From IMG/VR virus record IMGVR_UViG_3300025858_001097: 64,000 nucleotides of DNA, one strand, 5' to 3'. The stretch is from a virus (Duplodnaviria; Heunggongvirae; Uroviricota; Caudoviricetes). Position 1 is the stretch's first letter. Each line of letters begins with the position of its first letter. Below are positions 18,663 to 51,349 of the stretch, in pieces. The notes under the pieces are model-generated. The model saw only the letters and a program-made list of their open reading frames with translations. It was not told the origin of the DNA and ran no database searches. Made by a program: the position numbers and the translations under genes.

Positions 18663-18683
18663 CTTAAAAACGAAATAATAGGA

Positions 18684-30764: not shown

Positions 30765-30771
30765 TTAAAAA

Positions 30772-30813
30772 GAAAAACGGTTTTTTATACCTATATATAA
30801 AAAACCGTTTTTC
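30772..30813 (-). terminator. perfect 15-bp inverted repeat (A5-CGG-T6) with a TATATA-containing loop, between the pncA-like gene and the fibre 3 start
   Basis: gaaaaacggtttttt [atacctatatat] aaaaaaccgtttttc; T-runs on both strands; ends 9 nt before the fibre 3 ATG. Confidence 0.5.
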
Positions 30814-30841
30814 TTTTTGGTGTGGAGTTGTTATGAAGTTA

Positions 30842-31432
30842 TTATCTTTGCATATCAAAGAAAATTTTATATTTAAATATTTCATCGTCAGATAGAAAAA
30901 TATCCAGATCCATTGAATTTATAATCATAACGCCGTCTTTAGCCATATCTTCGACGATGGGAGTCATTTGATCGAAAAAACGTGTTGCATCTACAATCAA
31001 AAAAGTTTTGAAAAATACAGAGCAATCTTTGGCCGTTTCTTTTACATTGAAATCTCCTGGAAGTCCAACTACATAAACTTCTTTTACATCGTTTTTATCT
31101 AAAAAATCATAAAGATTTAAACCATCTTCATTAACTCCAACAAAACCGCTCAAATCTATGGTTTTCTCACCTTTTGTGAAAATAGTAGTTTCTTTTAAAT
31201 CTAAATCTGGATGAAAATCTGCGCCTTCAGTATTTTGAATACAATGAGGAGGAATTTCATCAGTGAAAGATTTATGATTGACTGGATGCCAATCTCTTGA
31301 TGCTACAGTTAAATCAAATTTATCTTTGATTTCGTTAATTATAGGAATAATTCTATCTCCGAAAGGAACAGGATATGTTCCACCGGGCATAAAATCCTTT
31401 TGAACATCAACAATAAATAAAGCTCTTTTCAT
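30842..31432 (-). CDS. isochorismatase-family protein, PncA (nicotinamidase)-like, with the catalytic Cys position apparently substituted
   Basis: IVDVQKDF (Asp), SRDWHP...PPHC metal-binding residues and TKGE (Lys) are present. The segment aligning to the PncA GIATDHCV reads GLPGDFNV. Confidence 0.55.
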   Translation of the reverse strand: MKRALFIVDVQKDFMPGGTYPVPFGDRIIPIINEIKDKFDLTVASRDWHPVNHKSFTDEIPPHCIQNTEGADFHPDLDLKETTIFTKGEKTIDLSGFVGVNEDGLNLYDFLDKNDVKEVYVVGLPGDFNVKETAKDCSVFFKTFLIVDATRFFDQMTPIVEDMAKDGVMIINSMDLDIFLSDDEIFKYKIFFDMQR

Positions 31433-31433
31433 A

Positions 31434-31799
31434 TTATTCTAATCTAATAACACCACTATCAACTTCAAATGTTTTCTTTTCTACCAGAGTGTCTGGCAAA
31501 ACAAAAGTTTTTCCATCCTGTAAAACCATAACAGTTCCTTTCTTTGGAAAATGAACAGGATTTTTGCATGTTTCGCTATGGAATAAAAAGGAATTAAATG
31601 CTGGTTTTAATGAAAGACGTCCATTGGTTTTCAAATAACCCATGTATTCGTGCCCTTCAATTTCATAAACATATAAGGTGATCCCATTCACGACAACATG
31701 TCTTTTAGCATTCATTTCTTTATCAATATCAACTTTCTGTTTACAACCAGTAAACAGAAAAAGACACATTATTACTAATAATCCTAAAAATTTTTTCAT
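31434..31799 (-). CDS. lipoprotein (121 aa)
   Basis: Signal peptide with lipobox LFTGC. Confidence 0.5.
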   Translation of the reverse strand: MKKFLGLLVIMCLFLFTGCKQKVDIDKEMNAKRHVVVNGITLYVYEIEGHEYMGYLKTNGRLSLKPAFNSFLFHSETCKNPVHFPKKGTVMVLQDGKTFVLPDTLVEKKTFEVDSGVIRLE

Positions 31800-31819: not shown

Positions 31820-32800
31820 TTAATAGTTAAAAAAATTCTTTTTAACTATATCTATAGCTTTTTGTGTTCTTTCTTCCCAATCAGTTCCACTCACAACCTC
31901 CATTTTTAAATTTTTAGATTTAAAAAAGTTGTATTGGAAATCACCAAGATCATCTCTTTTTTCTTTTGAAAGGCGAGTTCCATCTTGTATATAAGGGGCA
32001 TCTTTATCTAAGAAAATGTATAAATCGAATTTGTTTGCTTCTTCAATCCAATTATCGAATACGGGTTCAAGATCGAAGAAAAATTTAGAATAAGATTTTG
32101 TTGTATTTAAATTTGTGTCGCTAAATAATATCCTATTAGCGTGTTTTATTTCTTCGATTATGCCACTAGCATGAGCTTTTCCAACATTCATGATATCTTT
32201 TATAGTTGTATTGTCTGAATGTTCGATTATATCTCTACCCCACTCTTTTACATAAGATGTTTGAAAAACTTTTGACAATTTTTCTGTAAGAACTGTTTTT
32301 CCAGTACTTTCTGTTCCACACAGACATATTTTCTTAACAAAATAAGGTCTTGCTACAAGTGATATATAATCCCAATACTTGAAAGGATTTTCTCTTATCT
32401 GAGTGCCACTTATTGGAACAGTTTCACGTTTTTCGTCAAATATTACATATCCACAATTCATATACTCAGCAACATACTCTGCGTAAGGTTCTGAAGCAAA
32501 CACAACATCTACATTATCTAAAGTTTTACTTATGTGATCAGCCCATAGTTTAGATACTTCCCTATCAGAAACAGAAGTATATGGAAGTTTTACATCGGTA
32601 TATCTTATAATAACTTTATAATCATCCCTATATTTATCCGTAAGCCAGTGAAGTCTCACGTAACCTGGTATGGTTTCTTTTTCGTCATTCATACATAAAA
32701 GAACATATAAGAGATCACATTTCTCTTTAGCAAAATTTATAAGTGCTTCGTGACCTAAAGAAATTGGTTCTGCTTTTAAAATTATCAGTCCTCTTATCAT
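31820..32800 (-). CDS. nadR: NadR-like bifunctional NMN adenylyltransferase / ribosylnicotinamide kinase (no HTH domain)
   Basis: N-terminal cytidylyltransferase-like PISLGHEAL (H/TxGH); central P-loop GTESTGKT of the RNK domain; 326 aa. Confidence 0.7.
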   Translation of the reverse strand: MIRGLIILKAEPISLGHEALINFAKEKCDLLYVLLCMNDEKETIPGYVRLHWLTDKYRDDYKVIIRYTDVKLPYTSVSDREVSKLWADHISKTLDNVDVVFASEPYAEYVAEYMNCGYVIFDEKRETVPISGTQIRENPFKYWDYISLVARPYFVKKICLCGTESTGKTVLTEKLSKVFQTSYVKEWGRDIIEHSDNTTIKDIMNVGKAHASGIIEEIKHANRILFSDTNLNTTKSYSKFFFDLEPVFDNWIEEANKFDLYIFLDKDAPYIQDGTRLSKEKRDDLGDFQYNFFKSKNLKMEVVSGTDWEERTQKAIDIVKKNFFNY

Positions 32801-33636
32801 TCAAATATTTTTTTTATATTTTTGAAGTTGTTATTTATAATCAGATTATAATCATAATATTTCTTGGATTCATTCATTTTAATTTCATTAATATTTCTTT
32901 TCTTATTCCACAAATAACTTGATTTTATTTCAAAGACTATGTTTGTATTTTTTATTCTATAGTCTATATAATAATTATGTTCTTTTCCGCTATCATCAAA
33001 ATAACTTATACGAGGTCCTCTTTCAATCAAATCAAATTTACCGATGGATTCAACAAATTTTAAAAATTTTAATTCATAACTGCTTTGATAATCTATGCCA
33101 TTATATTGTTTTATTCTTATTCTTCCCCATCCACTATTAGGTTTTCTTCTCCCTTCTTTAAAAGCTTTAATGGCTGCATCACTCATTCTTTTTTTAATAT
33201 CATCAGATAGTTTAGTCCCCTTTCTTTTTTCTGCCATTTTTATCCATCCTTGTTTTTCTTTTATTTTTTGTTTAGAAGATTCCCAAGTAAAAGGGTTTCC
33301 GTTCTCATTCAACCATTTTTTAAGCCCTATTTTAGCATTATTGTTTGGTTTTCCAAAATTTCCGTTTCTATCTCCTTTATTTTGACATTTGGTACAAAAA
33401 TGTTCATTTTTATCTGGTTTTAGATCTCTTATTCTTCTTTCGAATATTACACCACAATCATCACATTTTACTTTTATAAATTTTATTCTATAATCTCTTT
33501 TTGATTTTAGTAATGACCAATGAACTAAAAAAGGTTCGTTTATATTTGGTCTATAACCGAGTGTTTTTTTCCATCTGTCGGGTTGAGTGTAATGTGTTAA
33601 GACAACTTCAACGTTTTCATATTCTTTTATATACAT
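32797..33636 (-). CDS. putative homing endonuclease (zinc finger, NUMOD3-like motif and PD-(D/E)XK-like C-terminus)
   Basis: CDDCG...CTKC; KGTKLSDDIKKRMSDAAIKAFKEG resembles NUMOD3; C-terminal D...E.K pattern (IDYRI...IVFEIKS). Confidence 0.4.
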   Translation of the reverse strand: MYIKEYENVEVVLTHYTQPDRWKKTLGYRPNINEPFLVHWSLLKSKRDYRIKFIKVKCDDCGVIFERRIRDLKPDKNEHFCTKCQNKGDRNGNFGKPNNNAKIGLKKWLNENGNPFTWESSKQKIKEKQGWIKMAEKRKGTKLSDDIKKRMSDAAIKAFKEGRRKPNSGWGRIRIKQYNGIDYQSSYELKFLKFVESIGKFDLIERGPRISYFDDSGKEHNYYIDYRIKNTNIVFEIKSSYLWNKKRNINEIKMNESKKYYDYNLIINNNFKNIKKIFE

Positions 33637-33702: not shown

Positions 33703-34128
33703 TCATTCACTCCAATCTTCTTCACCATACGGATCCAAATCATTAATTATTCTTTTATTGAGTTTATATTCTCTTTTATGTTCTCTCTTTTTTTCTTTCC
33801 ATTCACTATAACTTCCACAATGATGATGTCTTATCATATTACATATATCTGGGAAACTTCTAACTACTTTAGTTGGCAAACTATATATATTTATATCTGA
33901 TGATGCACAATTATCTAATAGATGTAATATATAATCAATAACATAATCTTCATTTTGATCTTTATAATGTTTTAAAAATTTTATAATGTCATCGACATTC
34001 TTCCAGCTTAACTCGATTTTTTTTAAATCTAATATAGCTTGTGCGGCTTCTTCGCGTGTTAAATCTGTTCGATAACCATATTTATCGAAATCTTTAAAAT
34101 CTTCAAATTTAGATAAATTACTTATCAT
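33703..34128 (-). CDS. hypothetical protein with a C-terminal DPYGEEDW motif
   Basis: 141 aa. The motif is shared with 60039..60482 and with the disrupted ORF at 63661..63881. Confidence 0.5.
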   Translation of the reverse strand: MISNLSKFEDFKDFDKYGYRTDLTREEAAQAILDLKKIELSWKNVDDIIKFLKHYKDQNEDYVIDYILHLLDNCASSDINIYSLPTKVVRSFPDICNMIRHHHCGSYSEWKEKKREHKREYKLNKRIINDLDPYGEEDWSE

Positions 34129-34131
34129 ATG

Positions 34132-34452
34132 TCATTTAACTTTTTTAGTTTCATAAATATAACACTCATACCATCTTGAAGATACTCCATATTCACATAA
34201 TACATTTTCAAGAGATTGTTTGGGGAATTTAGTAAAAGATCCTTTTATTTCCAAGAACCAAGAATCTGGCACATATTTTTCTTTTATCCATTCTCTTGGA
34301 TCTTTTTCCCATCCATTTAATATATTATACCAACCTTCACTTTTATATTTATTTGTGAGTTCTCCAACGAGAATTTCTTCGCCATTATTATGTTTAAGAA
34401 TTATAATATCTTCAATTTCAATTTCGTCAAAACTTACTTTTTTCAATTTCAT
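34132..34452 (-). CDS. hypothetical protein (106 aa)
   Basis: ORF track. Confidence 0.5.
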   Translation of the reverse strand: MKLKKVSFDEIEIEDIIILKHNNGEEILVGELTNKYKSEGWYNILNGWEKDPREWIKEKYVPDSWFLEIKGSFTKFPKQSLENVLCEYGVSSRWYECYIYETKKVK

Positions 34453-35018
34453 TGTTGTTTTTTATATATTTTTGTCCAATTAATTAACCCGTAGACGGCT
34501 ACAAAAGTTATCACAATATATTCTAAAGATACTAAATATATTCCTTTTGAATAGAATAACCACACGCTTAACATATCCAATAATATCCATAGAAACCATC
34601 CATATAAATATTTTTTAGATAGAAATACCACAGCAAATATACTCATTGTTGTGACAATAGCATCTAGTAAAGCAAATTGTGGTTGAAAGAATCCCAATAC
34701 ATAACCTCCTAATAAACAAAGAATTAGTATAACAATTCCAGTTATTATTACATTTTTTAATGAAGATATTTTTATCTTTTTACCTATATCTCTTCCCCAA
34801 TATGTCCAACCGTATATTGAAACAATCGTAAAAAAGACTTGAAGCGCAACTTGTCCAAACAATTGATTTTTTAAAAAAAGTATAAAGAAAAATATCTGTC
34901 CGATTATACCAACAGGCCAATTCCAAATTTTGTTTCTAGCAGCCAAAACTACTGCAGCAAAAGAAAACAATGTTCCAAATAATTCTAAATAAGAAAGTGT
35001 ATATCCTAGTAATACCAT
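34449..35018 (-). CDS. pnuC: nicotinamide riboside / NMN transporter PnuC
   Basis: Multi-TM protein with a PnuC-like N-terminal region (FGTLFSFAAVVLAARNKIWNWPVGIIG...IYGWTYW). Confidence 0.75.
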   Translation of the reverse strand: MVLLGYTLSYLELFGTLFSFAAVVLAARNKIWNWPVGIIGQIFFFILFLKNQLFGQVALQVFFTIVSIYGWTYWGRDIGKKIKISSLKNVIITGIVILILCLLGGYVLGFFQPQFALLDAIVTTMSIFAVVFLSKKYLYGWFLWILLDMLSVWLFYSKGIYLVSLEYIVITFVAVYGLINWTKIYKKQQ

Positions 35019-35473
35019 TATTTATTTATCTTAATATACTTACCAATAATAGCTGATTTATCCAACACATGTCCATCAATTTCTTTCAAAAGTTCGGCTT
35101 TAGTATATCCTTCTTTGTTCAAAAAACAATCTAAAGCAAATATCTTAAAGAAATATCTATGAACACCATTTGGAGGGCATGGACCTTTATAATCAAATTG
35201 TTTATAGTCATTTTTTCCAAATAAAATTGGTGGTTGTGAATCTCCTTTTGTAAAGTGTTCATTAAACATAGTTGTAGTTGGTGGAATATTATATACAATC
35301 CAATGTACCCAATCTCCAACTGGAGCGTCGGGATCATCAACTAATAAAGCTAGACTAACAGTCGCTTTTGGAAAACCACTCCATTCTAGCTGAGGTGATA
35401 CATTTACTCCCTCGCAAGTAAATTTGGAAGGAATAAATTCACCATGTCTAAACGCGTTACTTCTTATTTCCAT
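35018..35473 (-). CDS. YbhB/YbcL-family phosphatidylethanolamine-binding (PEBP) protein
   Basis: LVDDPDAPVGDWVHW signature. Confidence 0.8.
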   Translation of the reverse strand: MEIRSNAFRHGEFIPSKFTCEGVNVSPQLEWSGFPKATVSLALLVDDPDAPVGDWVHWIVYNIPPTTTMFNEHFTKGDSQPPILFGKNDYKQFDYKGPCPPNGVHRYFFKIFALDCFLNKEGYTKAELLKEIDGHVLDKSAIIGKYIKINK

Positions 35474-37541
35474 CTTTTTCTTTTAACATTATTTTTAATT
35501 GAGCAAAACAATTAAATGGTACTCCTACAAAATAAAGTGGTTGATCTCCACTCCAATTTAATTGACCGCTCGCGAAATATTTTTGATTTGTTATATTATT
35601 AAAATAGATATTAAAATCTATCCAGTTCCAACTAACACCCAATTTTCCATTTAAAGTGTAATAAGAATCAATAGTTTCGGCTAAATCCGTCCCCAACCAT
35701 TTTGTATATCCGATGATACTTCCATCTTGATATCTACAAGATAAACCTACTACAAACCATTTATATTTATAATGACCTTCTATGTTACCTATCCATTTTG
35801 GAGATAATATTGGTTTATTTATTTGATTATTAGATTGTTTTATACCACAATCATTATACGAACCATTTACACCAATTCCTAAACCAAAATCCCATTTGTA
35901 TTTGAAATCTGCTTCAATTCCTCTTCTATAACTCTGTTTTACGTTATCGTGTAATGGAACTCCACTCATACCTATTTTACCATTTAAAACAATTTCATTA
36001 CTAAAATTCATATGGAAAAAATTGAAATTTATATAAAAATTTTTTTCTACTACACGAATACCAAGTTCATTATCTCGCGATTGTTCGGAATTAAGATTGT
36101 TATAAACAGCGTTACCAAGAGTATCACATGGTAAGTAGTTATACCCATTTAATACATCATTTCTTGATGGTTCACGATTATTTACACCATAACTATAATA
36201 AAACACAGTTCTATTTAAATTGTAATCTATTCCTAAATCATAATTTATAAAATTCCAATGTAAATCTGGCATAACAACATTATAATGAGGAGTAAAGTTC
36301 TCATCATAAGAAACATCGCCTTTATATTTAAAATCTGTATATCTATATTGAACATCGCCAAAAAGATTCAGATCTTTCCAAACATTATATTTAACTTTCA
36401 AATAACTACTTATTTCATTTCTATATCCAGTGTTTGTGTATTGATATCCATAAATATCATTATTCCCTATATGTTCTCTATCATATGTAAAACCGTGAGT
36501 TCCTAAATCGAAATAAAATCCTTTTATATTTTTTGAAAAATTTAAATATCCACCATACCAATTAGATTTAAAAGTATATTTGTCTATACCATAATTAATA
36601 TTATTCTGTAAGAAATTCTGTAAATCAAAAGTATAATAGCCGTGAAGATAATTATAATAAAGAGCATAATTCAATTTCGTTTCTTTATTGAAATTTATTA
36701 TGTGGTGAAATTGAACGTGTGTCTGAGCAAAATTATCTTGTTCTTTGTCTGTCGCACCGTTTGTTTTCCTATCTTCTCGAACTTTTTCCAACGGAACGCC
36801 CAACCACGCTAACTGATTATTTTGGGCTCCTATAAAAGATACTATTTTGAATGTATGTTTTTTTACATTAAAATATGAATTTAAAAATAAACTCTGTCCT
36901 TTATTACTGGAATGATATTTATATCCTTTTGTTTCTATATCTGATAATTGAAAGTAATAACCGCCACGTTTAAAATTTTGATCGACCTCTGCTCCAATAT
37001 TAAAACTATTGAAAGATCCGTATCCAAATTTAGCCGTCGCTTTATCATAAGTAGGGAAATGGGAATCAAAATTTAAACCACCTCCAAAACAAGATGATCC
37101 ATTTTTTGTTAAACTATTACCTCTTTGTATTTGAATCAAATCTAATGAATTAAAGAAATCTGGATAGTTTGAAAAATACAATCCTTGATCTTCGGGCTCA
37201 TTCATTGGCACTCCGTTTAGAGTGAAATTAATACGAGTTTGATCAATTCCTCTCATACGAATATAAGAATATCCATAGGGGCTACCAGCATCAGAATAAG
37301 ATGTGATAGAGGGTGTTGTAATAAGAATATCAGAAGGCTCTTGCCCGTGATATTTAAAATTTATTTCGTTCTTATTTAAATTTGTAAAAGTAATAGGAGT
37401 AAGATGATTCGCCTTGTATGGCGCTGTAATATTAACCTCTTTTAATTCTATCGTGTCCTTACCAATATGATAAATAGTGTCTTGACTATAACCCCCGATA
37501 GCGAAGATAAATAGAATAATAATAAATAATGTTCTTTTCAT
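35457..37541 (-). CDS. TonB-dependent outer-membrane receptor
   Basis: Signal peptide ending GGYSQD; plug-domain motifs (IQIQRGN..., RGIDQTRINFTLNGVPMN); long beta-barrel region; 694 aa. Confidence 0.7.
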   Translation of the reverse strand: MKRTLFIIILFIFAIGGYSQDTIYHIGKDTIELKEVNITAPYKANHLTPITFTNLNKNEINFKYHGQEPSDILITTPSITSYSDAGSPYGYSYIRMRGIDQTRINFTLNGVPMNEPEDQGLYFSNYPDFFNSLDLIQIQRGNSLTKNGSSCFGGGLNFDSHFPTYDKATAKFGYGSFNSFNIGAEVDQNFKRGGYYFQLSDIETKGYKYHSSNKGQSLFLNSYFNVKKHTFKIVSFIGAQNNQLAWLGVPLEKVREDRKTNGATDKEQDNFAQTHVQFHHIINFNKETKLNYALYYNYLHGYYTFDLQNFLQNNINYGIDKYTFKSNWYGGYLNFSKNIKGFYFDLGTHGFTYDREHIGNNDIYGYQYTNTGYRNEISSYLKVKYNVWKDLNLFGDVQYRYTDFKYKGDVSYDENFTPHYNVVMPDLHWNFINYDLGIDYNLNRTVFYYSYGVNNREPSRNDVLNGYNYLPCDTLGNAVYNNLNSEQSRDNELGIRVVEKNFYINFNFFHMNFSNEIVLNGKIGMSGVPLHDNVKQSYRRGIEADFKYKWDFGLGIGVNGSYNDCGIKQSNNQINKPILSPKWIGNIEGHYKYKWFVVGLSCRYQDGSIIGYTKWLGTDLAETIDSYYTLNGKLGVSWNWIDFNIYFNNITNQKYFASGQLNWSGDQPLYFVGVPFNCFAQLKIMLKEKDGNKK

Positions 37542-38056
37542 TTGTGATATTTTTCGTTAAATTTAAAACTCCATTCTGGATTTGGCCTGTATTTAGTGTT
37601 TAGAAAATATTTATATACATATTTCCAATCCTTTTTTGGATTAAATCCAGCCTTGTCTTCCCAAAGAGAATTGAAATATGGTTTTTTGTCATAAAATCCA
37701 AAACTTCCTTTAGCGTCAGAAATTTCTGGATTATCATTCACGTACTTAAAATATATACCATCTTCTTCGAATTGTTTCATATACTTTTCAATCTCGTTTT
37801 TATAAGAAGATGTGAATATAAACAATATCATATCACGGCGGTTCTTTGTAAGATATTGTAAAGTTTCTTTGGCATAAGGATAGTAATTTATTCTAAATTC
37901 ACCTTCACCTTTTTCAGATTTACGATAATCTGGCTCGGATATAACTCCATGAATATCAAAGCAATGATAGGTTTCATACCACTGCCTTTCTTTGGCGTGT
38001 TTAAACATTTTATCCATCCAAACAAGTAAAGATGGTTTATAGCAAGGATTTAGCAT
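37538..38056 (-). CDS. hypothetical protein, weakly HAD / 5'(3')-nucleotidase-like
   Basis: CFDIHGVI resembles HAD motif I (DxDGV) but with His at the second Asp position. Confidence 0.35.
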   Translation of the reverse strand: MLNPCYKPSLLVWMDKMFKHAKERQWYETYHCFDIHGVISEPDYRKSEKGEGEFRINYYPYAKETLQYLTKNRRDMILFIFTSSYKNEIEKYMKQFEEDGIYFKYVNDNPEISDAKGSFGFYDKKPYFNSLWEDKAGFNPKKDWKYVYKYFLNTKYRPNPEWSFKFNEKYHK

Positions 38057-38193
38057 ATAAATATTTTTTTATATAACTTTTTTATTTTTAAGCCATATAA
38101 TTCGAACAAAATTAAATATTTTTTTATTAATAAAAAAATTTTGTAACCGATAAGAAAAATTAGCGTCTAATCTAGAAAATAAAAACATAAAAT

Positions 38194-38487
38194 ATGAACA
38201 GATTGTATAGAGCATCTAAAGATCGCATTTTCGGTGGAGTTTGCGGAGGAATTGGGAAGTATTTCGATATTGATCCAGTTATTATAAGACTTATTTGGCT
38301 ATTGTTTGCCCTTTGTGCTGGCTTTGCTATTTTCATTTATATTATAGCATGGATAATAATTCCAAATGAACCTTTGGAAATAAAACCAGAAAAACCTATT
38401 AAAGAAAAGGAAGTTAAAGAAGACCCAATAGAAGAGCAGACCTTTGAAAAGCCAAGAGCTAGAAAAAAGGGAAATAATACAAAATAA
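38194..38487 (+). CDS. PspC-domain membrane protein
   Basis: LYRASKDRIFGGVCGGIGKYFDIDPVIIRL followed by a TM helix is the classic PspC domain. Confidence 0.7.
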   Translation: MNRLYRASKDRIFGGVCGGIGKYFDIDPVIIRLIWLLFALCAGFAIFIYIIAWIIIPNEPLEIKPEKPIKEKEVKEDPIEEQTFEKPRARKKGNNTK

Positions 38488-38496
38488 TTCTTCTGT

Positions 38497-39951
38497 TTAA
38501 GCTGCAGGCGTAGCTGGTGCTGGAGGTTGATCTTCTTTAAATCCGTAAGTCACCTCAGTCTTCGTTTTACCAGGAGTTTTACCTGGCACTTTCTTAGAAT
38601 CTATAGCATATAAAAGATCTATGTCATAGTAATCCTCACCAACTTTACCTATAGTTTTATTTAACTCAAATCTGTGTGTGACATCAGGAGGTGTTCGTTT
38701 ATTCTTATCGTGATAAACATCAACAGCATATTTTTTCCAAATCCATGTATTTAAAGGTTTTGAGAAAACCGAATCTTCTTTAGCATACCATTTCTTTGTA
38801 TATTCACACCAAACGATGTGTGGGGATCGTGGGAAAGCATATTCATTATTGTAAGAAAGTCTTATCACGTCTTCTGTGGCACAATAAGCATTATCATACC
38901 TACACCAAGTAGCTCTACTTTCGGGAATATCTTCATCGTTATAACCATCGTGAACAATTGGATCATAATCATCGTCGTCTCTCCATTGTTCATAATGCCC
39001 TTCGGTGTCAGTTAAAGTATAATATTCTCCCTCAAGATCATCGACACTCGATAGTTTCTTTTGTTCATGATAAAAATATCTTAAAGTATCCACATAAGGA
39101 AATAAATCAAAGTTCGTATTTTCTAAAATAACTTCCATCTCAATATCCTGAGATCCTTTACCAGGAACAATTATATAAGTTCCACCATATTTTTGTTCGT
39201 CTTTACAATACCATCCTTCACGTTTAGCATAATTGGTGAATAATATTTCATCTTCGTCTTTATTAGTATAAACTCTATCCATAAAAATAGCTCCTTCCGG
39301 TTTTGATAATTTCCAAACTAACGCTCTTCCTCTAATCTTATTACCATCGCTATTTTTAAGTATGAACAATTTACATTGTTTTGGATTGTTTCTATAGATG
39401 TTTAAAAATCTTCCACAATCCTCGTGTGACATACAAGAAGCTCCCATAGTACCGCGTAGACTATCATAATTTCTTGCATCATACCAATAAACAATGTTGT
39501 CTCCATCAACCAATTCAAAATTACCAGATTCTTCAGTTTCTTTTACTATGGTTTTAAACTTCTTCACGAACTTTTGGACAGAATCCTCACTAAATTTTGG
39601 AAGATTTTGAATGATGAATCTTCCAATTTTTTGAGTAGTTCTCATTTTAGAAGTCCAAAATTCTTCCTTGGGCTTACCTTCTTTTTTGAGTCTTTCTATT
39701 CTAGAAGATTGTAAAAAAGAAACACTCTCACCGTCATCTTCTACATCAACGTAAGAGAAATCAAAGAGACGATCGACTTCTTCGAGTTCTAAAATACGTT
39801 TTGATATATTACTTTGTTTTATGTTCTGAATAGAAATTAAAACATCTTTAAATCTATCAGATAATATCATTTTTTGATCGGGCTGCTTTACTTTTTTCTC
39901 TCCTTTTTCGGCAGCTTCTTTCAAATAATCAAAATATTTATTAATACTCAT
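38497..39951 (-). CDS. paralogous family member A (uncharacterised; SCM(R/S), NPK/NPDK, GRAL.W, FMDRVY and YPYVDTL motifs)
   Basis: Conserved blocks shared with 41792, 43036, 44038, 55024 and 56098. Confidence 0.6.
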   Translation of the reverse strand: MSINKYFDYLKEAAEKGEKKVKQPDQKMILSDRFKDVLISIQNIKQSNISKRILELEEVDRLFDFSYVDVEDDGESVSFLQSSRIERLKKEGKPKEEFWTSKMRTTQKIGRFIIQNLPKFSEDSVQKFVKKFKTIVKETEESGNFELVDGDNIVYWYDARNYDSLRGTMGASCMSHEDCGRFLNIYRNNPKQCKLFILKNSDGNKIRGRALVWKLSKPEGAIFMDRVYTNKDEDEILFTNYAKREGWYCKDEQKYGGTYIIVPGKGSQDIEMEVILENTNFDLFPYVDTLRYFYHEQKKLSSVDDLEGEYYTLTDTEGHYEQWRDDDDYDPIVHDGYNDEDIPESRATWCRYDNAYCATEDVIRLSYNNEYAFPRSPHIVWCEYTKKWYAKEDSVFSKPLNTWIWKKYAVDVYHDKNKRTPPDVTHRFELNKTIGKVGEDYYDIDLLYAIDSKKVPGKTPGKTKTEVTYGFKEDQPPAPATPAA

Positions 39952-39970
39952 TTTCTATACAAAATATTTT

Positions 39971-41467
39971 TTAGAATTTCATGTCACCGACATCAACTCT
40001 TATGTCTTTTTCTCCTTTATTCTTAAATGAAATTTTAATGATCAGTTTGTCTGGTCGAATTCCAATAATTTTTCCTTCACCAAAAATGGGGTGGAAAATT
40101 ACTAATCCTTCTTTCAAATCTTTTTCTGTGAGTTTCCTACTACCACCGGATTCAGATTTTTTCTTAAAATCGTACTTTGAGAATTTATCTGGTGGAAGAA
40201 TGAATTTGCTATTCATAGTGGTTGTTATAATCACTTTTGGATGAGGTCCTTCATTATCCACTTCTGTTATTGTTCCAAAAAGTTCACCTGTTTTACTATA
40301 AATTTCCATATCCTTTTTGGCTTCATCGAAAGTAACAGGACTCATTCCCTTACTATCAACAACTTCTTCTCTCTTAACTTTCGTAGGATCAAAATCTGGT
40401 GTTGTGTAGAATCCTACGTAATCAACCCAAATAGCGTCTTTCTTTAGACACCATTGTTTGTCGTGTTCGCACCATTGAGCATCGGCCACCTTAACGGTAT
40501 TTCCGAGATAGTCTTTGACCTCTGTTTGACCCGGTGCTAATTGTCCTGGTCCTGTTGTTGTAGATCTTGCGGATGTAGTTTGTCCGTAACCTCCGCCTTC
40601 CCACCAACGATCATCACGTTCCCAATCTGAATAATATTTACCACGACGTGAGTAAGAATATTGATGCTCAACTTTAGTTGGATCTCTTTTCACTGGAAGA
40701 GTTTCCCAATCTACTTTACAACAAGCTTCTGCTAACTTTTCCAAAAAAACTATATTTTGTTTTTCGCGAACTGAGTGTTGATCATCATAACCAACACTAA
40801 GATTTGTACACTCGGGGAATTTTTCAGCAACTTGATGTGAATCTGTTACAGCTCCTGTTGGATCTTGTTTATATTTAAATCCACCAGCTTCATTTAACCT
40901 TTTAGCTAATTCATCTGCAAATTCAGCCGAACAACATCTTTCACCCATTTGGAAAGTAATAACACTATCATAATCTCTACGGTCTAATGAAATTACTTTA
41001 TTTATTTTTTTATATAATTCGTCATCTTTATTGCTACCCAAATATGTATTTAGAGCTCTAGATCCAACGCAACCATGTTCTTCACCATGAAAGAAATAAT
41101 AAAGACCTTGAATACCTTTCCCTATCATATATATCATAATAGTAGCGCCAGCTTTATCGTCCGCACCAAGTAGGGTTTTTCCGTCTGTTTCGATGTAATC
41201 TCCTTTGATGACATGCTTAACTTCTTTTGGTTGTCCGCTGTCTGCTGTATCCATATGGCAAGCAAACATAACGGTAGGATCTCCAATTTTGAAATAATAA
41301 TTTCCATTGGCATCCTTTTTCCACCCGCTAGGCAAATAAGGTTCTATCAACTTTTCGTTGCCTCCTGGCATTGTGGTACTTGTTAATTTTAAAAATAGGT
41401 CTTTGATTGTGGACATTTTATTTATGCTTATTTTTTTATCTTCTTTATTTTCAACAAAATCTTTCAT
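39971..41467 (-). CDS. M20-like (peptidase T-like) zinc metallopeptidase / amidohydrolase, paralogue 1, with a C-terminal extension
   Basis: FACHMDTA (HxD), LGADDKAG and HGEEHG (EE) motifs of M20/M28 dizinc hydrolases; about 50% identity with 45585..46733 over the catalytic region. Confidence 0.55.
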   Translation of the reverse strand: MKDFVENKEDKKISINKMSTIKDLFLKLTSTTMPGGNEKLIEPYLPSGWKKDANGNYYFKIGDPTVMFACHMDTADSGQPKEVKHVIKGDYIETDGKTLLGADDKAGATIMIYMIGKGIQGLYYFFHGEEHGCVGSRALNTYLGSNKDDELYKKINKVISLDRRDYDSVITFQMGERCCSAEFADELAKRLNEAGGFKYKQDPTGAVTDSHQVAEKFPECTNLSVGYDDQHSVREKQNIVFLEKLAEACCKVDWETLPVKRDPTKVEHQYSYSRRGKYYSDWERDDRWWEGGGYGQTTSARSTTTGPGQLAPGQTEVKDYLGNTVKVADAQWCEHDKQWCLKKDAIWVDYVGFYTTPDFDPTKVKREEVVDSKGMSPVTFDEAKKDMEIYSKTGELFGTITEVDNEGPHPKVIITTTMNSKFILPPDKFSKYDFKKKSESGGSRKLTEKDLKEGLVIFHPIFGEGKIIGIRPDKLIIKISFKNKGEKDIRVDVGDMKF

Positions 41468-41531
41468 TTTAGTAGATAATTTTGTTGTTGGTTCTTTCTT
41501 TTTATATCGCGTTTCCTTTTCCTCTTCTTCT

Positions 41532-41762
41532 TCAATTTCTTTGGTACATTTGATTTCTATACGGCGTGAAATCTTTATCTGATAAAAAATTTTCTACTCT
41601 TTTGTTCGATTCACTTTTACCGCCTAATTTATATTCGTCATCTAAAACTCTGCTTAAAAATTTAGCAACTTCTTTTGCACTGGAATTTAACAATTGTTTT
41701 TTGAGTTCCCCCAATTCACTTTCAGATAGATCTCCTACTTTAGTTTTTGACAAATCGAACAT
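41532..41762 (-). CDS. hypothetical protein (76 aa)
   Basis: ORF track; promoter-like box at 41785-41796 overlapping the stop of the upstream gene. Confidence 0.45.
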   Translation of the reverse strand: MFDLSKTKVGDLSESELGELKKQLLNSSAKEVAKFLSRVLDDEYKLGGKSESNKRVENFLSDKDFTPYRNQMYQRN

Positions 41763-41791
41763 TTATATTCTATTATTTTTTATTCTATATA

Positions 41792-43009
41792 TTAAAAATT
41801 TTTTTTGAGTATGTACTCACCAGTTTCTTCGTCTTTCATCATATCGTCTTTCAAATATATTTTTGAACCCAATCTGACAAATTCGTGTTCGGGTGTTACA
41901 TAATCATCTCTATATTTTAATGGAACAGCATCATTTTTGTGTACATAGACATTATCATATTCCGACCAAATCAGAAAATCACGATAAACCATTCTACCCA
42001 AATAATCTATTCCGAAATTATAATTACTATCTACTAGTGGTTCTCCGTTAGCCATAACCAAAGCTAACCAACCAGTTTTATTAAATTTTTCAACGTCACT
42101 TGTAAGAATCGCTTCTTCTGGATTATAAAATTGTAAAGTATCTACATATGGATAATGTTCGTGATTAATTTTATTCAGATTTACTGTCATTATAATTTTT
42201 TCTTCTTTCCCTTTATTCACAACTGGAATAACACTTCCTCCATACATTTGTTTACTTTTATAAATATAATCATTTCTTATTGCATAATCTATAAAAAGTT
42301 TAATTTGCCAATCATAAGTGGTGTATATCCTATCCATAAAAATTCTTCCAGCCGGCTCATCCAGATACCATAAATTGGCTCTTCCGTATATCTTATCTTC
42401 ATTTGGATCTTTCAGTATTAACATTTTCATTTTATCGGGATTCTTCTCGTATAAAGAAAAGAATATTTTAGAATCATCATATCTCATACAAGATCTCTGT
42501 AGTTGACCCGTGGCTTCCCCACTATACATTCTCCCACTATAATATTTAATAATTTCTTTTCCTTCAATTACAGAAAAATTTTCTACCTCACCTTTTAAAG
42601 CTACTTTATAATTCTTTATAAATTCTTCTATTTGCTGTTGAGTGAATTTATTTCCAAAAATTCTAGTTATAAACCTAGACAATCTCTGTTTTTGACGATA
42701 ATGCACCCAGCAATAATTTATACCTTCTTGATCTTTTCCTATAGATTTATATTTATCTAATATTTGTTTTGCTTTATTTGATGCTGTATAAGAAACAAAA
42801 TCATCCTTTTCTTCTTCCACATCCACAAAAGAAATATCATATTTTTTATTATCATATTGAATATTCATTAGTTCATCTAGAATGGGATCTTCTGGCATAT
42901 CGGCCAAAACTTCCTTAAAAGTGTGAGAAAAAATCATGGGTAGATTATTCTCATCTTTCGATTCATTCAAAAATGATTTAAAACCGTATAATATCATTAA
43001 TAAAATCAA
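41792..43009 (-). CDS. paralogous family member B
   Basis: RSCMRY, NPDKMKMLIL, YGRANLWYLDEP, FMDRIY and YPYVDTL blocks. Confidence 0.6.
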   Translation of the reverse strand: MILLMILYGFKSFLNESKDENNLPMIFSHTFKEVLADMPEDPILDELMNIQYDNKKYDISFVDVEEEKDDFVSYTASNKAKQILDKYKSIGKDQEGINYCWVHYRQKQRLSRFITRIFGNKFTQQQIEEFIKNYKVALKGEVENFSVIEGKEIIKYYSGRMYSGEATGQLQRSCMRYDDSKIFFSLYEKNPDKMKMLILKDPNEDKIYGRANLWYLDEPAGRIFMDRIYTTYDWQIKLFIDYAIRNDYIYKSKQMYGGSVIPVVNKGKEEKIIMTVNLNKINHEHYPYVDTLQFYNPEEAILTSDVEKFNKTGWLALVMANGEPLVDSNYNFGIDYLGRMVYRDFLIWSEYDNVYVHKNDAVPLKYRDDYVTPEHEFVRLGSKIYLKDDMMKDEETGEYILKKNF

Positions 43010-43021
43010 TTATTTTCTGTT

Positions 43022-43037
43022 TCTATATATAAAATTT
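43022..43037 (-). promoter_or_regulatory. promoter-like box upstream of family member B, overlapping the stop of member C
   Basis: tctatatataaaattt. Confidence 0.4.
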
Positions 43038-43992
43038 AAAATTCAAAATCACTTCTTAATTCATAACTGCCTGTATGATCACAAAGATCGTAAAATTGTT
43101 TACATCCTATGCTTTTTAAGAATCTCGGATCGTTTGTCAAACTGCCACTTTTTGGATCATAGAAACCTAGATTGTCAACAAAAGGATAAAATTCATAATC
43201 TTTTGGGTTTATTTTTACAACCATAGTTTCTTTGATAATTTTATTATTAGATACAACTTGCAATACGTTATCCATACTCTCGAGTTTATACAGCCAATTA
43301 TTTTTTATTGCGAAATTTATAAACATATTTAGTATGAAGTCATCAGAGAAATATACTCTATCCATGAATGTTTTGTCGGGTCGATCCAAATTCCATAATA
43401 AAGCTCTACCAAGAATTTTCTGTTTATCATCATCCAATAAAATTAATAATTTGATTTTATCTGGATTTTCTGCGTAGATATTTAAAAAAGCTTGACAAAA
43501 TCTATATCTCATACAAGAATTTTTGAGATTTCCACCACCAACAGCATAATTTTCTTGACGATACCAATTCTTTATTTCATCTCCGATTACAGTTTTAAAA
43601 TTTCTGTTTAAATGTTTTGCTTTTATAATAGATTTATATTTATTTATAAAATTCTCTATTTCTTGCGGTTGAACTTTATCACCAACCAATCTAACAATCA
43701 ATCTTCCGATTCTTATTTCAATTCTTTGGGGATTGGACCAGCATTCTGATTCAATATCAGTCACTTTATCTTCTATCATTTTATTTACTTTATCGCCAGT
43801 GATAAAAGTGACAGTATCTTCTTTTTCTGTTCTATCTATGAATGTTTCTTTTGATAAAAATCTTTGAGTCGCCAATTTAAATAGTTCTCTTGATACATTA
43901 TCGTCTATTCTATTTAAAATTTTAGAAATTCTCTTAGACAAAACGAGTGGAAACAAGTCTGGATTTGAGATGTTGTACTTATCAAAGTTCAT
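43036..43992 (-). CDS. paralogous family member C
   Basis: NSCMRY, NPDKIKLLIL, GRALLWNL, FMDRVY and YPFVDNL blocks. Confidence 0.6.
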   Translation of the reverse strand: MNFDKYNISNPDLFPLVLSKRISKILNRIDDNVSRELFKLATQRFLSKETFIDRTEKEDTVTFITGDKVNKMIEDKVTDIESECWSNPQRIEIRIGRLIVRLVGDKVQPQEIENFINKYKSIIKAKHLNRNFKTVIGDEIKNWYRQENYAVGGGNLKNSCMRYRFCQAFLNIYAENPDKIKLLILLDDDKQKILGRALLWNLDRPDKTFMDRVYFSDDFILNMFINFAIKNNWLYKLESMDNVLQVVSNNKIIKETMVVKINPKDYEFYPFVDNLGFYDPKSGSLTNDPRFLKSIGCKQFYDLCDHTGSYELRSDFEF

Positions 43993-44037
43993 TTCAAATA
44001 ATCATTTTCGCGTATATATTTTATTTTGTATCTGGTT

Positions 44038-45456
44038 TTATATTGACTTTCTTTTTTTCTTTTTTTCTTTATTACTTCCCATCATTTCTCTTACGAAGCT
44101 ATTCTTTTTTATCAGTTCTTCTAACGCTTTTTTGTCATTGTTATTGATTTCAATTATTTTATTTTCATCATATTCATCTTTAAAATAGTATTCATCATCG
44201 ATTCCTTTTATTAGAAGATCCATTATATAAAATTTACCATCAACATATTCATATTCTTTATTTATATCGTTTCTTAAAAGATAATCAAAGGTTTTCCTAT
44301 CCTTGTCAAAATAAACTCTATACACATCGCCTTCCATCATAAAAGAACCAATCTTTTTAGAATAAACACTAGATTGTGAGGTTAGAAACCTTTTATGATG
44401 AGTAGAATATCTTAATTCTGATGGATAAGAATATTCGTCAAATTCTTTTATAAAGAAAGCGTTGTTTTTATGCGTATAACCATCACCATAATAACAGAAT
44501 ATAGAATCTTCTATGTTGATAAATTCTTTATTTAAAACATCGTAAACAAAATTTTCGTTTCCAGAATCCGCTCCGTTTGTTTCACGAAGCTTTACAATAT
44601 TAGAAATCTCTTCATATTCCTTATCTATATTTGTTAGATATTTTTCTTTCGCGTTATAATAAAATAAAGTATCCATATAAGGAAAGTATTTAAAATCTCC
44701 CTTAACATGAACTTTCATATCAATATTGATTTCAAAACCATCTTTTACGACTTTTACGGCATCAAATGTCTGGGCTGCTTTATACAACCATCCTTGTTTT
44801 TCAGCGTGTTTCTTGAAAAGAATAGCGTCAGAATCTTCCTTAACGTATATTCTATCTAAAAGCCAAGTATCACTTGGTTCGTCTAATTTCCAAAGAATGG
44901 CTCTTCCACCAATAAGATCTCTACTTTCCTGAAGAATTAACATTTTTATTTTATCTGGATTCTTTGTATATAAATCCATATATTGCTCACATTGATCGTA
45001 ACGCATGCAAGACTTATTCAGTGAACCATTGCCTCTTGAATATCTTTTACCGTTATAGTATTTTGCAATTTCACAGCCTTCAACAATCTTAAATTTAATA
45101 TTTTTTAAAGCATTCTTATATTCAGCTTTAAATGAATTTACCCATCTTTCAATTTCTGATGGTGTATAAAAAGGAGCAATTTTGTTTATTAATCTACCAA
45201 CTCGAATTTCGTTTCTAGAACCGCACGACCATACCATATCACCGTTTCCTCTCACTTGAGGAATTTCTTGGTATTTATTAGCTTGAATAAAAGATACTGT
45301 AGATTCATCATCCGTTATATCGAAAAAAGAATACTGGAAAGCGTAGTCTTGATTGTTCTCCATAGAAAGAATGAAAATAGATATATTGTCATTGATTCTC
45401 GTGAGAATATCTCTAAATCTTGATGATAAAATTACTGGTAAATATACATTTTCCAT
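44038..45456 (-). CDS. paralogous family member D
   Basis: KSCMRY, NPDKIKMLIL, GRAILWKL, LDRIY and FPYMDTL blocks. Confidence 0.6.
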   Translation of the reverse strand: MENVYLPVILSSRFRDILTRINDNISIFILSMENNQDYAFQYSFFDITDDESTVSFIQANKYQEIPQVRGNGDMVWSCGSRNEIRVGRLINKIAPFYTPSEIERWVNSFKAEYKNALKNIKFKIVEGCEIAKYYNGKRYSRGNGSLNKSCMRYDQCEQYMDLYTKNPDKIKMLILQESRDLIGGRAILWKLDEPSDTWLLDRIYVKEDSDAILFKKHAEKQGWLYKAAQTFDAVKVVKDGFEINIDMKVHVKGDFKYFPYMDTLFYYNAKEKYLTNIDKEYEEISNIVKLRETNGADSGNENFVYDVLNKEFINIEDSIFCYYGDGYTHKNNAFFIKEFDEYSYPSELRYSTHHKRFLTSQSSVYSKKIGSFMMEGDVYRVYFDKDRKTFDYLLRNDINKEYEYVDGKFYIMDLLIKGIDDEYYFKDEYDENKIIEINNNDKKALEELIKKNSFVREMMGSNKEKKKKRKSI

Positions 45457-45584
45457 AAATGAAAATTAATTTTTAATATATAATGCAAATTGCGGATTAT
45501 AAATTGTTTTACAAAATTAATAAATTTAATTTAGATATTAAAAAATTTTATTAATTTTGTAAAAATAAAAGAATAAAAATATTT

Positions 45585-46733
45585 ATGGACATTAGAGCGA
45601 AGTTTTTAGAATTGACATCAAAAACATATCCTATGGGGAAAGAAAAGGAAGTATATAAATTTTTACCAGACGATTTTATTAAGGACCCATTTGATAATTT
45701 ATATTGGATAATAGGACATCCAGACACTTTATTCTGTGCTCATCTTGATACTGTCGGCGAGTCATCTGAAGTTGTACATGTTTTTGATGGAAATGTGGTC
45801 AAAACAAATGGGAAAACCGTTCTTGGAGCAGATGATAAAGCGGGAGTTGTTATTATGCTAAATATGATAGAAAAAAACATCCCTGGTTTTTATTTATTCA
45901 CTGTGGGCGAAGAAAAGGGGTGTCAAGGTTCGGCTAAATTATCTCAAAAATTACAGACAAAAGGAGACGATAAATTCAAAGGTATCAAAAAAATAATAGC
46001 CTTCGATAGAAGTGGATATAGTAGTATTATTACACACCAAATGGAACAAAGATGTTGTAGTGATGAATTTGCAAATGCCTTAATTAGAGAATTTGGAAAA
46101 GTAGGTCTCCAATACACATTAGACACGGGTGGTGTATATTGTGATTCTGCTGAGTTTGCGGATCTAATTCCCGAATGCACTAATATTTCTGTTGGTTATT
46201 TCGATCAACACAACGTAGTGGAAAAACAAGACATGGCTTTTTTGGAAAGGTTATCAGATGCTTGTTGTAAAGTAGATTGGAAATCATTACCAGTAAAAAG
46301 AGATCCTAAAAAAGTAGAATATATTGATAGTTATTATACTAGTAGAAAGAAAAGAACTATTGTAGGTGAAGATGAATCCGAATTTGATGATTATGATTTT
46401 CATCCAATGGCAGTTGAAGATAATAAAGATGTGGAAGTTTTCTATTTCGAAGATAAAAGATATAATTATATATCTGATATATCTTATCTAAATGGTGAAA
46501 TTGTAGATATTACTTTAAGTCAAAAACGCATTGAGCATGAATTAGAGGCAATAACAAAATATATAGAAGATAGTGGAATAATATATGATTTCGCTGTTTG
46601 GGATGGACTCATTTTGGTCGTCGAACACGACAAACACGAAACAAAAATATCAAGAAACGATCTCATCAAATACGTACCAATTCTCGATATAGAATTTATC
46701 AAGAAAGAGGTAAGACCAATTAGAAAATTTTAA
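45585..46733 (+). CDS. M20-like (peptidase T-like) zinc metallopeptidase / amidohydrolase, paralogue 2
   Basis: CAHLDTV, LGADDKAG and VGEEKG motifs; no TATATA box upstream, unlike most genes. Confidence 0.55.
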   Translation: MDIRAKFLELTSKTYPMGKEKEVYKFLPDDFIKDPFDNLYWIIGHPDTLFCAHLDTVGESSEVVHVFDGNVVKTNGKTVLGADDKAGVVIMLNMIEKNIPGFYLFTVGEEKGCQGSAKLSQKLQTKGDDKFKGIKKIIAFDRSGYSSIITHQMEQRCCSDEFANALIREFGKVGLQYTLDTGGVYCDSAEFADLIPECTNISVGYFDQHNVVEKQDMAFLERLSDACCKVDWKSLPVKRDPKKVEYIDSYYTSRKKRTIVGEDESEFDDYDFHPMAVEDNKDVEVFYFEDKRYNYISDISYLNGEIVDITLSQKRIEHELEAITKYIEDSGIIYDFAVWDGLILVVEHDKHETKISRNDLIKYVPILDIEFIKKEVRPIRKF

Positions 46734-50146: not shown

Positions 50147-50497
50147 TTATTCTAATTTTCCTTTATTATACCATTTAACTATCGTTTTTTCTTCTTCAAC
50201 TTGTTTGTATCCCATTCTTCGCTTAAAATCCTCATGCCATATTTCACAATATTCATCAAGAGTTACTTCTTTTCCTCTATAATACCATTTAGTATTAATA
50301 AGATCATTATTATCAAGATCTTTATAATATTCTTCTAATTTTTTCAATCTACTCAAATCTTTTACAAAAACTTTACGCCATTGGGGATCGCTTACAATAA
50401 CCGCAGATCCTGGTCCTTTTGATGTTACAACTCCAGGAAAAGATATGGTTACTCCTTTATAAAATACTTTATCTCCTATTTCAAAATTACTTTTCAT
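50147..50497 (-). CDS. hypothetical protein (116 aa)
   Basis: ORF track. Confidence 0.5.
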   Translation of the reverse strand: MKSNFEIGDKVFYKGVTISFPGVVTSKGPGSAVIVSDPQWRKVFVKDLSRLKKLEEYYKDLDNNDLINTKWYYRGKEVTLDEYCEIWHEDFKRRMGYKQVEEEKTIVKWYNKGKLE

Positions 50498-51347: not shown

Positions 51348-51349
51348 TA

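Follow-up and report, generated by a model that had tools for sequence, protein, structure and literature searches.

A TonB-dependent transporter gene in the NAD+ salvage cluster of a huge phage: a candidate outer-membrane entry point for nicotinamide riboside or a related NAD+ precursor

Introduction

What use would a virus have for an outer-membrane transporter? The question is raised by a stretch of 64,000 nucleotides of viral DNA (Caudoviricetes; IMG/VR record IMGVR_UViG_3300025858_001097), the whole of which is referred to below as the window, and in which the gene at 35457..37541 on the minus strand encodes a TonB-dependent transporter (TBDT). An initial annotation, made from the sequence alone, had seen in this gene an unusual phage outer-membrane moron, perhaps serving nutrient or vitamin uptake or altering the availability of receptors to other phages. 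The phage-borne TBDT stands, but it is no isolated oddity, since it recurs in huge phages as a component of an NAD+ salvage island; and the idea of nutrient or vitamin uptake can be sharpened to vitamin B3, the TBDT gene being operonic with PnuC and NadR genes in phages and in bacteria alike. We propose, with a probability of roughly 60%, that the TBDT family is a functional Bacteroidota-specific transporter of nicotinamide riboside (NR) or a close NAD+ precursor (nicotinamide mononucleotide, NMN, or NAD+), and that the operon TBDT-PnuC-NadR was captured by huge phages.

A full-length transporter gene

The open reading frame (ORF) at 35457..37541 (-) begins with an ATG and runs through 694 codons with no interruption. 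The initial annotation had described a full-length plug and barrel behind a cleavable signal peptide, and this architecture is borne out: a signal peptide (residues 1-20) is followed by a TonB-box-like segment (29-40), the plug (about 49-154), the barrel (about 155-688) and a hydrophilic tail, KEKDGNKK. In the profile search that had been suggested as a check, the Pfam models for the Plug domain (PF07715; residues 49-154, E = 4.9e-9) and for the barrel (TonB_dep_Rec_b-barrel, PF00593; residues 258-650, E = 5.5e-20) both scored above their gathering cutoffs. The N-terminus, MKRTLFIIILFIFAIGGYSQ/D, was read by eye as a type-I signal peptide with a basic n-region, a 14-residue hydrophobic core and no lipobox Cys. 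The segment DTIELKEVNITA (residues 29-40) is conserved in an alignment of 30 homologs, with D29, L33 and E35 nearly invariant, and presumably corresponds to the DTxxVTA TonB boxes of E. coli, which it resembles; across the phage and bacterial proteins of this alignment about 130 columns are invariant.

An AlphaFold2 model built on the same 30 homologs reached a predicted TM score (pTM) of 0.79, with per-residue confidence (pLDDT) of 85-92 in the barrel. In a Foldseek search the entire model could be superposed on two transporters with 22 strands, PqqU (9c4o) and YncD (6v81), with TM scores of 0.76-0.81 over about 700 columns at 15-16% identity; the 22-strand assignment for our protein derives from this superposition. 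The nearest solved folds also include siderophore receptors. By sequence, solved TBDTs are no more than distant relatives (the best match, with E = 1e-16, covers part of the barrel), and of the NCBIfam models, SusC/RagA TIGR04056 included, none matched. The protein has about 2000 database homologs and is thus not the product of a chance ORF. We are close to certain that 35457..37541 is a genuine phage-encoded, full-length and apparently intact TBDT gene.

Linkage to PnuC and NadR in phages and bacteria

The TBDT gene is the second of a tightly packed same-strand cluster in which several stops and starts overlap and which reads, from 38056 down to 30842 (-): HAD/NIF-like, TBDT, PEBP, PnuC, two small genes, endonuclease-like, NadR-like, lipoprotein and PncA-like. 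The PnuC-family inner-membrane transporter (189 aa; 34449..35018, -), a predicted NR facilitator, matched Pfam NMN_transporter (PF04973, 1e-44), TIGR01528 (91.9 bits against a cutoff of 42.45) and phrog_1880, and it retains the WxxW motif when aligned to the PnuC structure 4QTN. The NadR-like protein (326 aa; 31820..32800, -), a predicted NMN adenylyltransferase (NMNAT) and ribosylnicotinamide kinase, has NadR proteins as its best PDB matches (E = 1.6e-36) and matches phrog_3462 (4.5e-74). From residue 4 onwards it aligns to positions 67-406 of the 411-position NadR model; the N-terminal helix-turn-helix (HTH) region is therefore missing. The Walker A motif of the kinase, GTESTGKT, and the second NMNAT signature, ISGTQIR, are intact. 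The PnuC and NadR genes share a strand and are separated by 1.6 kb, a space occupied by three genes.

Using tblastn with the proteins of the window, the same linkage was found in independent lineages of phages. In LR756501, an uncultured phage of 735 kb, as well as in the two closest contigs, the order is NAPRT(PncB)-HAD-x-NadE-TBDT-x-x-PnuC-NadR-lipoprotein-PncA, with an endonuclease-like gene preceding NadR in the two contigs. TBDT, PnuC and NadR are immediate neighbours in LR756502 (642 kb) and LR745206 (635 kb), the TBDTs of which are 35% identical to that of the window, and they lie inside 7 kb in phage Lak-C1; all 15 Lak genomes of the phage collection carry a TBDT. A scan of IMG/VR returned 31 viral contigs with a relative of the TBDT, 13-483 kb long and with 26-38% GC in the loci sampled. 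NadR was located within 6 kb of the TBDT in 28 of these contigs and PnuC was detectable in 19; NAPRT, NadE and PncA were found in 8, 7 and 6, respectively. An intact TBDT ORF is present in over 30 viral contigs and in 20 reference megaphage genomes, at 27-66% identity, and the closest relatives of the TBDT are all on phage or IMG/VR contigs.

For the bacterial side, one genome per species (185,579 species) was scanned by TBDT peptide motifs alone, and the best 80 loci were taken. Almost all of these are labelled Bacteroidota, with a few odd labels of metagenome-assembled genomes, and their TBDTs are 37-45% identical to that of the window over 94-99% of its length; the TBDT has the family motifs P[LM]NEPEDQ and YFSNYPD. 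Immediately downstream of the TBDT, NadR was found in 74 of the 80 loci, and in 60 of them PnuC stands between TBDT and NadR, with gaps of about 50 bp. In Mucilaginibacter phyllosphaerae the order by Pfam is NrtR (NUDIX+WHD_NrtR)-NUDIX-NAMPT-TBDT-PnuC-AAA_28 (NadR homolog)-Prs, which is a classical NAD-salvage locus with a TBDT in its middle, and NrtR, NAMPT or Prs occurs within 8 kb in 19 of the 80 loci. The TBDT-PnuC-NadR linkage is ancestral in Bacteroidota. Since the TBDT gene is operonic with PnuC and NadR, the NR salvage pair, in phages and in bacteria, its product can be linked to NR or another NAD precursor.

Proposed function

A PnuC-like transporter and an HTH-less NadR together make up NARP3, encoded by genes 86 and 87 of Escherichia phage Bas30; experiments with Bas30_86/87 in E. 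coli have demonstrated that NARP3 imports NR and restores NAD+ against the Sir2-HerA defence (Sci Adv 2026, PMC13464706). Both core genes are present in the window, as a PnuC-family protein and an HTH-less NadR with NMNAT and kinase domains, and by analogy would be expected to carry out the steps from NR to NMN to NAD+. As in NARP3, they belong to one same-strand cassette, and in LR756502 and LR745206 they are directly adjacent. The best PDB matches of the window NadR also include entries 9x6f/9x6h ('nicotinamide-nucleotide adenylyltransferase', E = 1.9e-31), which may be the NARP3 enzyme Bas30_86.

On the reading that we favour, the phage cluster would be transcribed during infection, from 38056 down to 30842. 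The TBDT precursor would be exported via the host Sec pathway and its signal peptide cut off, and the host beta-barrel assembly machinery (BAM) would insert the protein into the outer membrane, where host TonB-ExbBD would power it through the TonB box. It would bind a scarce extracellular precursor and deliver it to the periplasm; NR would then cross the inner membrane via PnuC and be trapped as NMN by the NadR kinase domain, and from this NMN the adenylyltransferase domain or a host enzyme would make NAD+. The outcome would be a phage-controlled supply of NAD+ for phage metabolism, possibly offsetting NAD+-depleting host defences, and the whole route would amount to a NARP3 pathway extended to the outer membrane. 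We advance more tentatively, at somewhat short of even odds, the view that this is the first outer-membrane transporter dedicated to NR or NMN/NAD+, and that megaphages place it on the host surface so that import across two membranes feeds NARP3-type NAD+ restoration against NAD-depleting immunity. If so, phages can provide their host with a complete two-membrane uptake system, and not with cytoplasmic enzymes alone, and NARP3 counter-defence extends from phages of Enterobacteria to the largest known phages. The proposal also supplies a testable substrate prediction for an orphan TBDT family that is widespread in Bacteroidota of gut, soil and marine environments, where vitamin exchange shapes communities.

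Several points weigh against this reading. The substrate of the TBDT family is assigned through guilt by association. NR, at about 255 Da, is small and passes other outer membranes via porins, so that the real ligand could be larger or different, and a new outer-membrane protein within a lytic cycle requires a long infection period. Three of the four residues that contact NR in Neisseria PnuC (list from PMC13464706) differ in the phage PnuC. The first NMNAT motif of the phage NadR (residues 4-14) reads LKAEPISLGH, as against GKFxPxHxGH in more than 100 bacterial and viral homologs; judging from the sequence of the NARP3 enzyme, which has a T at the equivalent position, the Ser in SLGH may be tolerated. 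The plug and N-terminus of the TBDT were poorly modelled by AlphaFold2, with low pLDDT, and the missing terminal aromatic residue and the hydrophilic tail might reduce its BAM-dependent assembly. Finally, the NAD island of this genome looks partly decayed: NAPRT and NadE are gone, PncA has lost its Cys and the NadR motif is atypical.

The alternative with the most in its favour, although an unlikely one in our estimation, is that the TBDT imports something unrelated to NAD, such as an iron-siderophore complex, a carbohydrate in the manner of SusC-like proteins, or thiamine via a PnuT-type partner. Many of the homologs are labelled 'iron complex outermembrane receptor protein' by JGI, the siderophore receptors noted above are among the nearest solved folds, and the binding-site residues of the PnuC are unlike those of the NR-bound Neisseria structure. 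However, among the loci inspected none showed genes for iron uptake, the closest folds, PqqU and YncD, carry the cofactor pyrroloquinoline quinone (PQQ) and not iron, and the partner of the transporter is a NadR-type NR kinase/NMNAT in 74 of the 80 bacterial loci and in 28 of the 31 viral ones. The carbohydrate reading has a precedent, since a 'SusC-like TonB-dependent receptor' was noted in the megaphages Mar_Mega_1 and LR745206 and proposed to serve carbohydrate uptake (Michniewski et al. 2021, PMC9723777). The LR745206 gene is the homolog mentioned above, at 35% identity, and the report thus constitutes a prior sighting of a megaphage TBDT. For the family of the window gene the SusC reading was rejected: the SusC/RagA model TIGR04056 does not match, the protein has 694 aa instead of about 1000 and no N-terminal CarboxypepD_reg extension, no SusD-like lipoprotein is adjacent (the neighbours are HAD-like and PEBP), and in LR745206 the gene directly precedes PnuC and NadR. 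The earlier 'SusC/carbohydrate' reading of the megaphage gene is corrected accordingly. Import of thiamine is unlikely, as Rfam scans revealed neither a TPP (thiamine pyrophosphate) nor any other riboswitch in the window and no Rfam family, the TPP riboswitch included, in eight bacterial loci, and as the partner enzyme is NadR-like.

Selection and phylogeny

Between pairs of phages the dN/dS of the TBDT gene is 0.08-0.30, from which it follows that the gene has been kept under purifying selection in phage genomes (values for PnuC in pairs with contig L105 were disregarded as an artefact of frame problems in the high-scoring segment pairs). The TBDT nevertheless evolves faster than its partners in one close pair, viral contig L002 and LR756501, in which dN is 0.20 for the TBDT against 0.07 for PnuC and 0.03 for NadR. 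The flanking NAD genes of these two are 88-97% identical and the TBDTs about 70%, the ends of the TBDT being conserved and the middle of the barrel divergent; fast-evolving exposed loops or recombination could account for this.

A rate three to six times that of PnuC and NadR is what would be expected of exposed loops in conflict, and it lends some weight to the view that the main benefit of the TBDT is the remodelling of the cell surface, transport being secondary: the barrel, perhaps with the small lipoprotein that is conserved in the cluster, would block host receptors or take their place, shutting out superinfecting phages, or would serve as a decoy. The small lipoprotein Llp of phage T5 blocks a TBDT, FhuA. 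Huge phages are known to encode surface-localised proteins that possibly alter susceptibility to other phages (Al-Shayeb et al., PMC7162821). We nonetheless consider this reading quite unlikely. In phages the TBDT is co-inherited with PnuC and NadR, and uninfected bacteria, for which exclusion would have no purpose, possess the operon too; the residues of the plug and the TonB box on which transport depends do not vary, and the overall dN/dS is well under 1. Nothing found here favours superinfection exclusion or receptor remodelling, both raised by the initial annotation, as an alternative to transport, with which they could coexist, and it is possible that the fast-evolving exposed loops and the lipoprotein also alter the susceptibility of the cell to other phages.

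In a neighbour-joining tree of the TBDTs (midpoint-rooted, no bootstraps) the viral proteins form at least two large virus-only groups, with one singleton among bacteria. The large virus-only groups suggest long retention in phages, and the tree fits a few ancient captures followed by such retention. The closest 'bacterial' TBDT (45% identity; NadR 46%) is on an 11-kb contig binned as Bacteroidales (CAYZNC010000209.1); the tree puts it with the viral clade, and the contig is perhaps a piece of a phage that was binned wrongly.

Retention of this kind is hard to reconcile with the TBDT being a passenger, dragged in with an operon that was captured for PnuC and NadR and either unused or misassembled in infection, a view that we hold to be about as doubtful as surface remodelling. 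PnuC and NadR alone suffice for NARP3 in E. coli (PMC13464706), and the rest of the island is decaying here. The C-terminus of the TBDT, ...FAQLKIML-KEKDGNKK, might point the same way, since it consists of a Leu and eight hydrophilic residues and its last residue is not aromatic, as a beta-signal would require. The tail after the last barrel strand is encoded by 35457..35480; the closest phage relatives have NYGKNNK in its place, and such a tail of 7-8 residues is peculiar to the lineage of the window and LR756501, bacterial homologs having at most one residue past the last strand. A terminal F, W or Y is present in 59 of the 80 bacterial homologs and 21 end with a non-aromatic residue; the terminal aromatic is thus not strict in the family, and loss of a terminal Phe was ruled out as a phage-specific hallmark (ORFs having been extended to their stops). 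Against a passenger role stand the intact ORF in all those viral contigs and reference megaphages, the dN/dS of 0.08-0.30 within phage lineages, the approximately 130 columns invariant between phage and bacterial proteins and, with the reservation that the tree has no bootstraps, the large virus-only clades.

The window as part of a huge phage

The window belongs to the genome of a huge phage with a Bacteroidota host. In the region of the TBDT, the order of about 13 consecutive genes is the same as in LR756501 and in two metagenome contigs of 172 kb and 55 kb, with protein identities of 55-73%. Genomes above 634 kb and the Lak phages have been placed in one clade, 'Mahaphage', with predicted Bacteroidetes hosts (Al-Shayeb et al., PMC7162821). 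Three giant ORFs of the window, of 1256, 1335 and 2898 aa, matched tail-fibre, tail-spike and collagen-like tail PHROGs; these collagen-like (Gly-X-Y) tail-fibre-type ORFs are located at 5602..9372, 11759..15766 and, for the largest, 22068..30764 (-). A head-tail adaptor match and several homing/HNH endonucleases were also found, and the virus-like character that the initial annotation had attributed to the region thus holds. Within the 64 kb no tRNA or rRNA genes were found, and neither a terminase nor a major capsid gene was identified. Most of the window has 26-33% GC, with 36-41% at 6-18 kb and 44-50% inside the giant collagen-like gene; this 2898-aa gene, with about 29% GC on either side of it, has many spurious overlapping ORFs. 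The relatives of the window are detectable at the protein level only: megablast of 25 kb of it against 50,697 phage records gave no match, and the genome is therefore not represented in that collection.

The diderm, Bacteroidota-like host that had been predicted is supported from three sides. The 80 best cellular homologs of the TBDT are nearly all from Bacteroidota, the related phages have predicted Bacteroidetes hosts, and Shine-Dalgarno motifs are as rare as the initial annotation had noted: GGAG or GAGG is present upstream of one of 50 genes of the window, compared with a background of 4.6%, which fits Bacteroidota-style translation initiation. The CarboxypepD_reg domain that had been cited in this context is present in the protein encoded at 52426..53574 (+), where it occupies a C-terminal position (residues 304-379, 3.8e-11). 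Beyond this domain the 382-aa protein has no family match. For megaphage contigs to which no host can otherwise be assigned, the TBDT-PnuC-NadR module is a phylum-level marker of a Bacteroidota host.

That the window is a bacterial chromosome or a prophage flank, with the TBDT as an ordinary host gene, is highly improbable: the operon is common in Bacteroidota chromosomes and terminase and major capsid genes were not identified in the 64 kb, but the collinearity with the curated LR756501 genome, the tail-fibre, tail-spike, head-tail adaptor and homing endonuclease genes, the lack of tRNA and rRNA genes and the exclusively phage or IMG/VR origin of the closest TBDT relatives all argue otherwise. 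Of the two origins that the initial annotation had named as speaking against its proposal, a bacterial chromosome and kinship with eukaryotic giant viruses, neither was found.

Comparison with known systems

Phage PnuC-NadR pairs, in the form of NARP3, and phage NAD islands are already known, and a megaphage TBDT has been noted once in passing. What sets the phage operon described here apart from NARP3 is, above all, the outer-membrane TBDT; the NARP3 paper (PMC13464706) is silent on TonB and the outer membrane. The hosts are Bacteroidota instead of Enterobacteriaceae, the core genes are separated by extra genes in the window, and its relatives add NAPRT, NadE and PncA. With the chromosomal operon of Bacteroidota the phage operon shares full-length homology of the TBDT, at the 37-45% identity given above, and the order TBDT-PnuC-NadR; it differs in that the phage copies are without NrtR and NAMPT and have PEBP, lipoprotein and endonuclease-like inserts as well as the C-terminal tail.

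The NAD-jumbo phages of a 2024 survey are large phages, often with Bacteroidota hosts, in which NAD+ genes including pnuC, nadR, pncB and nadE are clustered; the text of the survey contains neither 'TonB' nor 'outer membrane' (PMC11662467), and the TBDT of the window operon distinguishes it from the clusters described there. An NAD+ salvage pathway of vibriophage KVP40 is attributed to Lee et al. 2017 by PMC9723777. PqqU/YncD (PQQ), BtuB (B12) and the thiamine-linked TBDT of Bacteroides share a logic with the proposed route, in that a TBDT of the outer membrane passes a scarce cofactor on to a transporter in the inner membrane that is dedicated to it; the substrate predicted for the window TBDT is a different one, and even the closest solved folds, PqqU and YncD, are merely 15-16% identical to it. 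To our knowledge none of these transporters is phage-encoded. In the open-access literature we found no description of an NR-specific TBDT, of a TBDT-PnuC-NadR operon or of an outer-membrane step in the uptake of vitamin B3 or NR, although such an operon may have been described elsewhere, for example in regulon databases. Three points appear to be new: the status of the TBDT as a conserved and integral component of the operon for NR salvage, in Bacteroidota as in their huge phages, the prediction of a substrate for it, and a virus-encoded import route across both membranes.

Other genes of the cluster

The first gene of the cluster (37538..38056, -; 172 aa), the stop of which overlaps the TBDT start, encodes a protein with a weak match to the HAD/NIF-like phosphatase fold that is 71% identical in relatives and had no informative match in PDB. 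Between TBDT and PnuC, overlapping both, lies a gene for a PEBP/YbhB-family protein without a signal peptide (35018..35473, -; 151 aa); in relatives its place is taken by two small genes that are unrelated to it. Two small genes (33703..34452, -; 141 and 106 aa) separate PnuC from the endonuclease-like gene (32797..33636, -), which is directly upstream of NadR and matched phrog_15137 and, weakly, DUF7487/DUF7836. Endonuclease-like homologs stand beside NadR in the viral contigs L002, L091, L093, L098 and L101, and this recurrence suggests a mobile endonuclease associated with NadR.

Between NadR and PncA, a small gene (31434..31799, -; 121 aa) encodes a predicted lipoprotein (lipobox LFTGC, MKKFLGLLVIMCLFLFTGC...). 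The protein has no Pfam or PHROG match and is absent from the bacterial operons; homologs with 55-57% identity are found in LR756501 and the 172-kb contig, likewise between NadR and PncA. Towards the TBDT it may act as a partner or as a blocker. The PncA-like protein that follows (30842..31432, -; 196 aa) has the isochorismatase fold and scores below the NF008623 cutoff. The Asp and Lys of the catalytic triad are aligned, and the Cys is replaced by Asn, with GDFNV in place of GDYCV in nine related phage copies and of ATEYCV in the nicotinamidase 1ILW; going by this replacement the protein is probably not an active nicotinamidase. As the window also lacks NAPRT and NadE, by which the TBDT is flanked in its closest relatives, the Preiss-Handler branch, from nicotinamide through nicotinate to NAD, has apparently decayed here. 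Amid this decay the window keeps the TBDT, PnuC and the NadR kinase.

A candidate promoter lies in the AT-rich intergenic region at 38057..38193 (-), where TAATTTTG, similar to the Bacteroidota -7 element, is found at 38107..38114, 51 nt upstream of the first gene. The call is weak, because the window has only modestly more copies of the -7 motif TAnnTTTG than expected (119 occurrences, 92 expected); a sigma-70 promoter scan of the window was uninformative (54 sites, 50 expected). Directly after PncA, a perfect 20-bp hairpin with T-runs on both strands (30770..30815) forms a candidate terminator. About 13 kb from the cluster, a gene pair at 50487..52291 (-) encodes PPK2 (7e-65) and ribose-phosphate pyrophosphokinase (Prs), the latter a frequent partner of NAD salvage genes and a member of the Mucilaginibacter NAD locus.

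Other genes in the window

Divergent from the NAD cluster, the gene at 38194..38487 (+) encodes a PspC-domain membrane protein, a homolog of which is similarly placed in LR756501 and the 172-kb contig. It is followed by a paralog array at 38497..46733, in an arrangement that is also present in LR756501. The array comprises four paralogs of about 400-480 aa, 29-31% identical to each other (38497..39951, 41792..43009, 43036..43992 and 44038..45456), and two M28-peptidase-like genes that are 50% identical (39971..41467 and 45585..46733). Downstream of the tail-fibre genes, an RCC1-repeat-like protein (17454..19568, -; phrog_4219, 6e-32) adjoins a nucleotide-sugar epimerase-like gene (phrog_540, 3e-52). 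The sole Rfam match in the window is a DUF805b RNA at 63566..63601 (-), which scored 41.8 bits against a gathering threshold of 35.6 and is located just upstream of the SPFH/Band_7 gene at 62511..63545.

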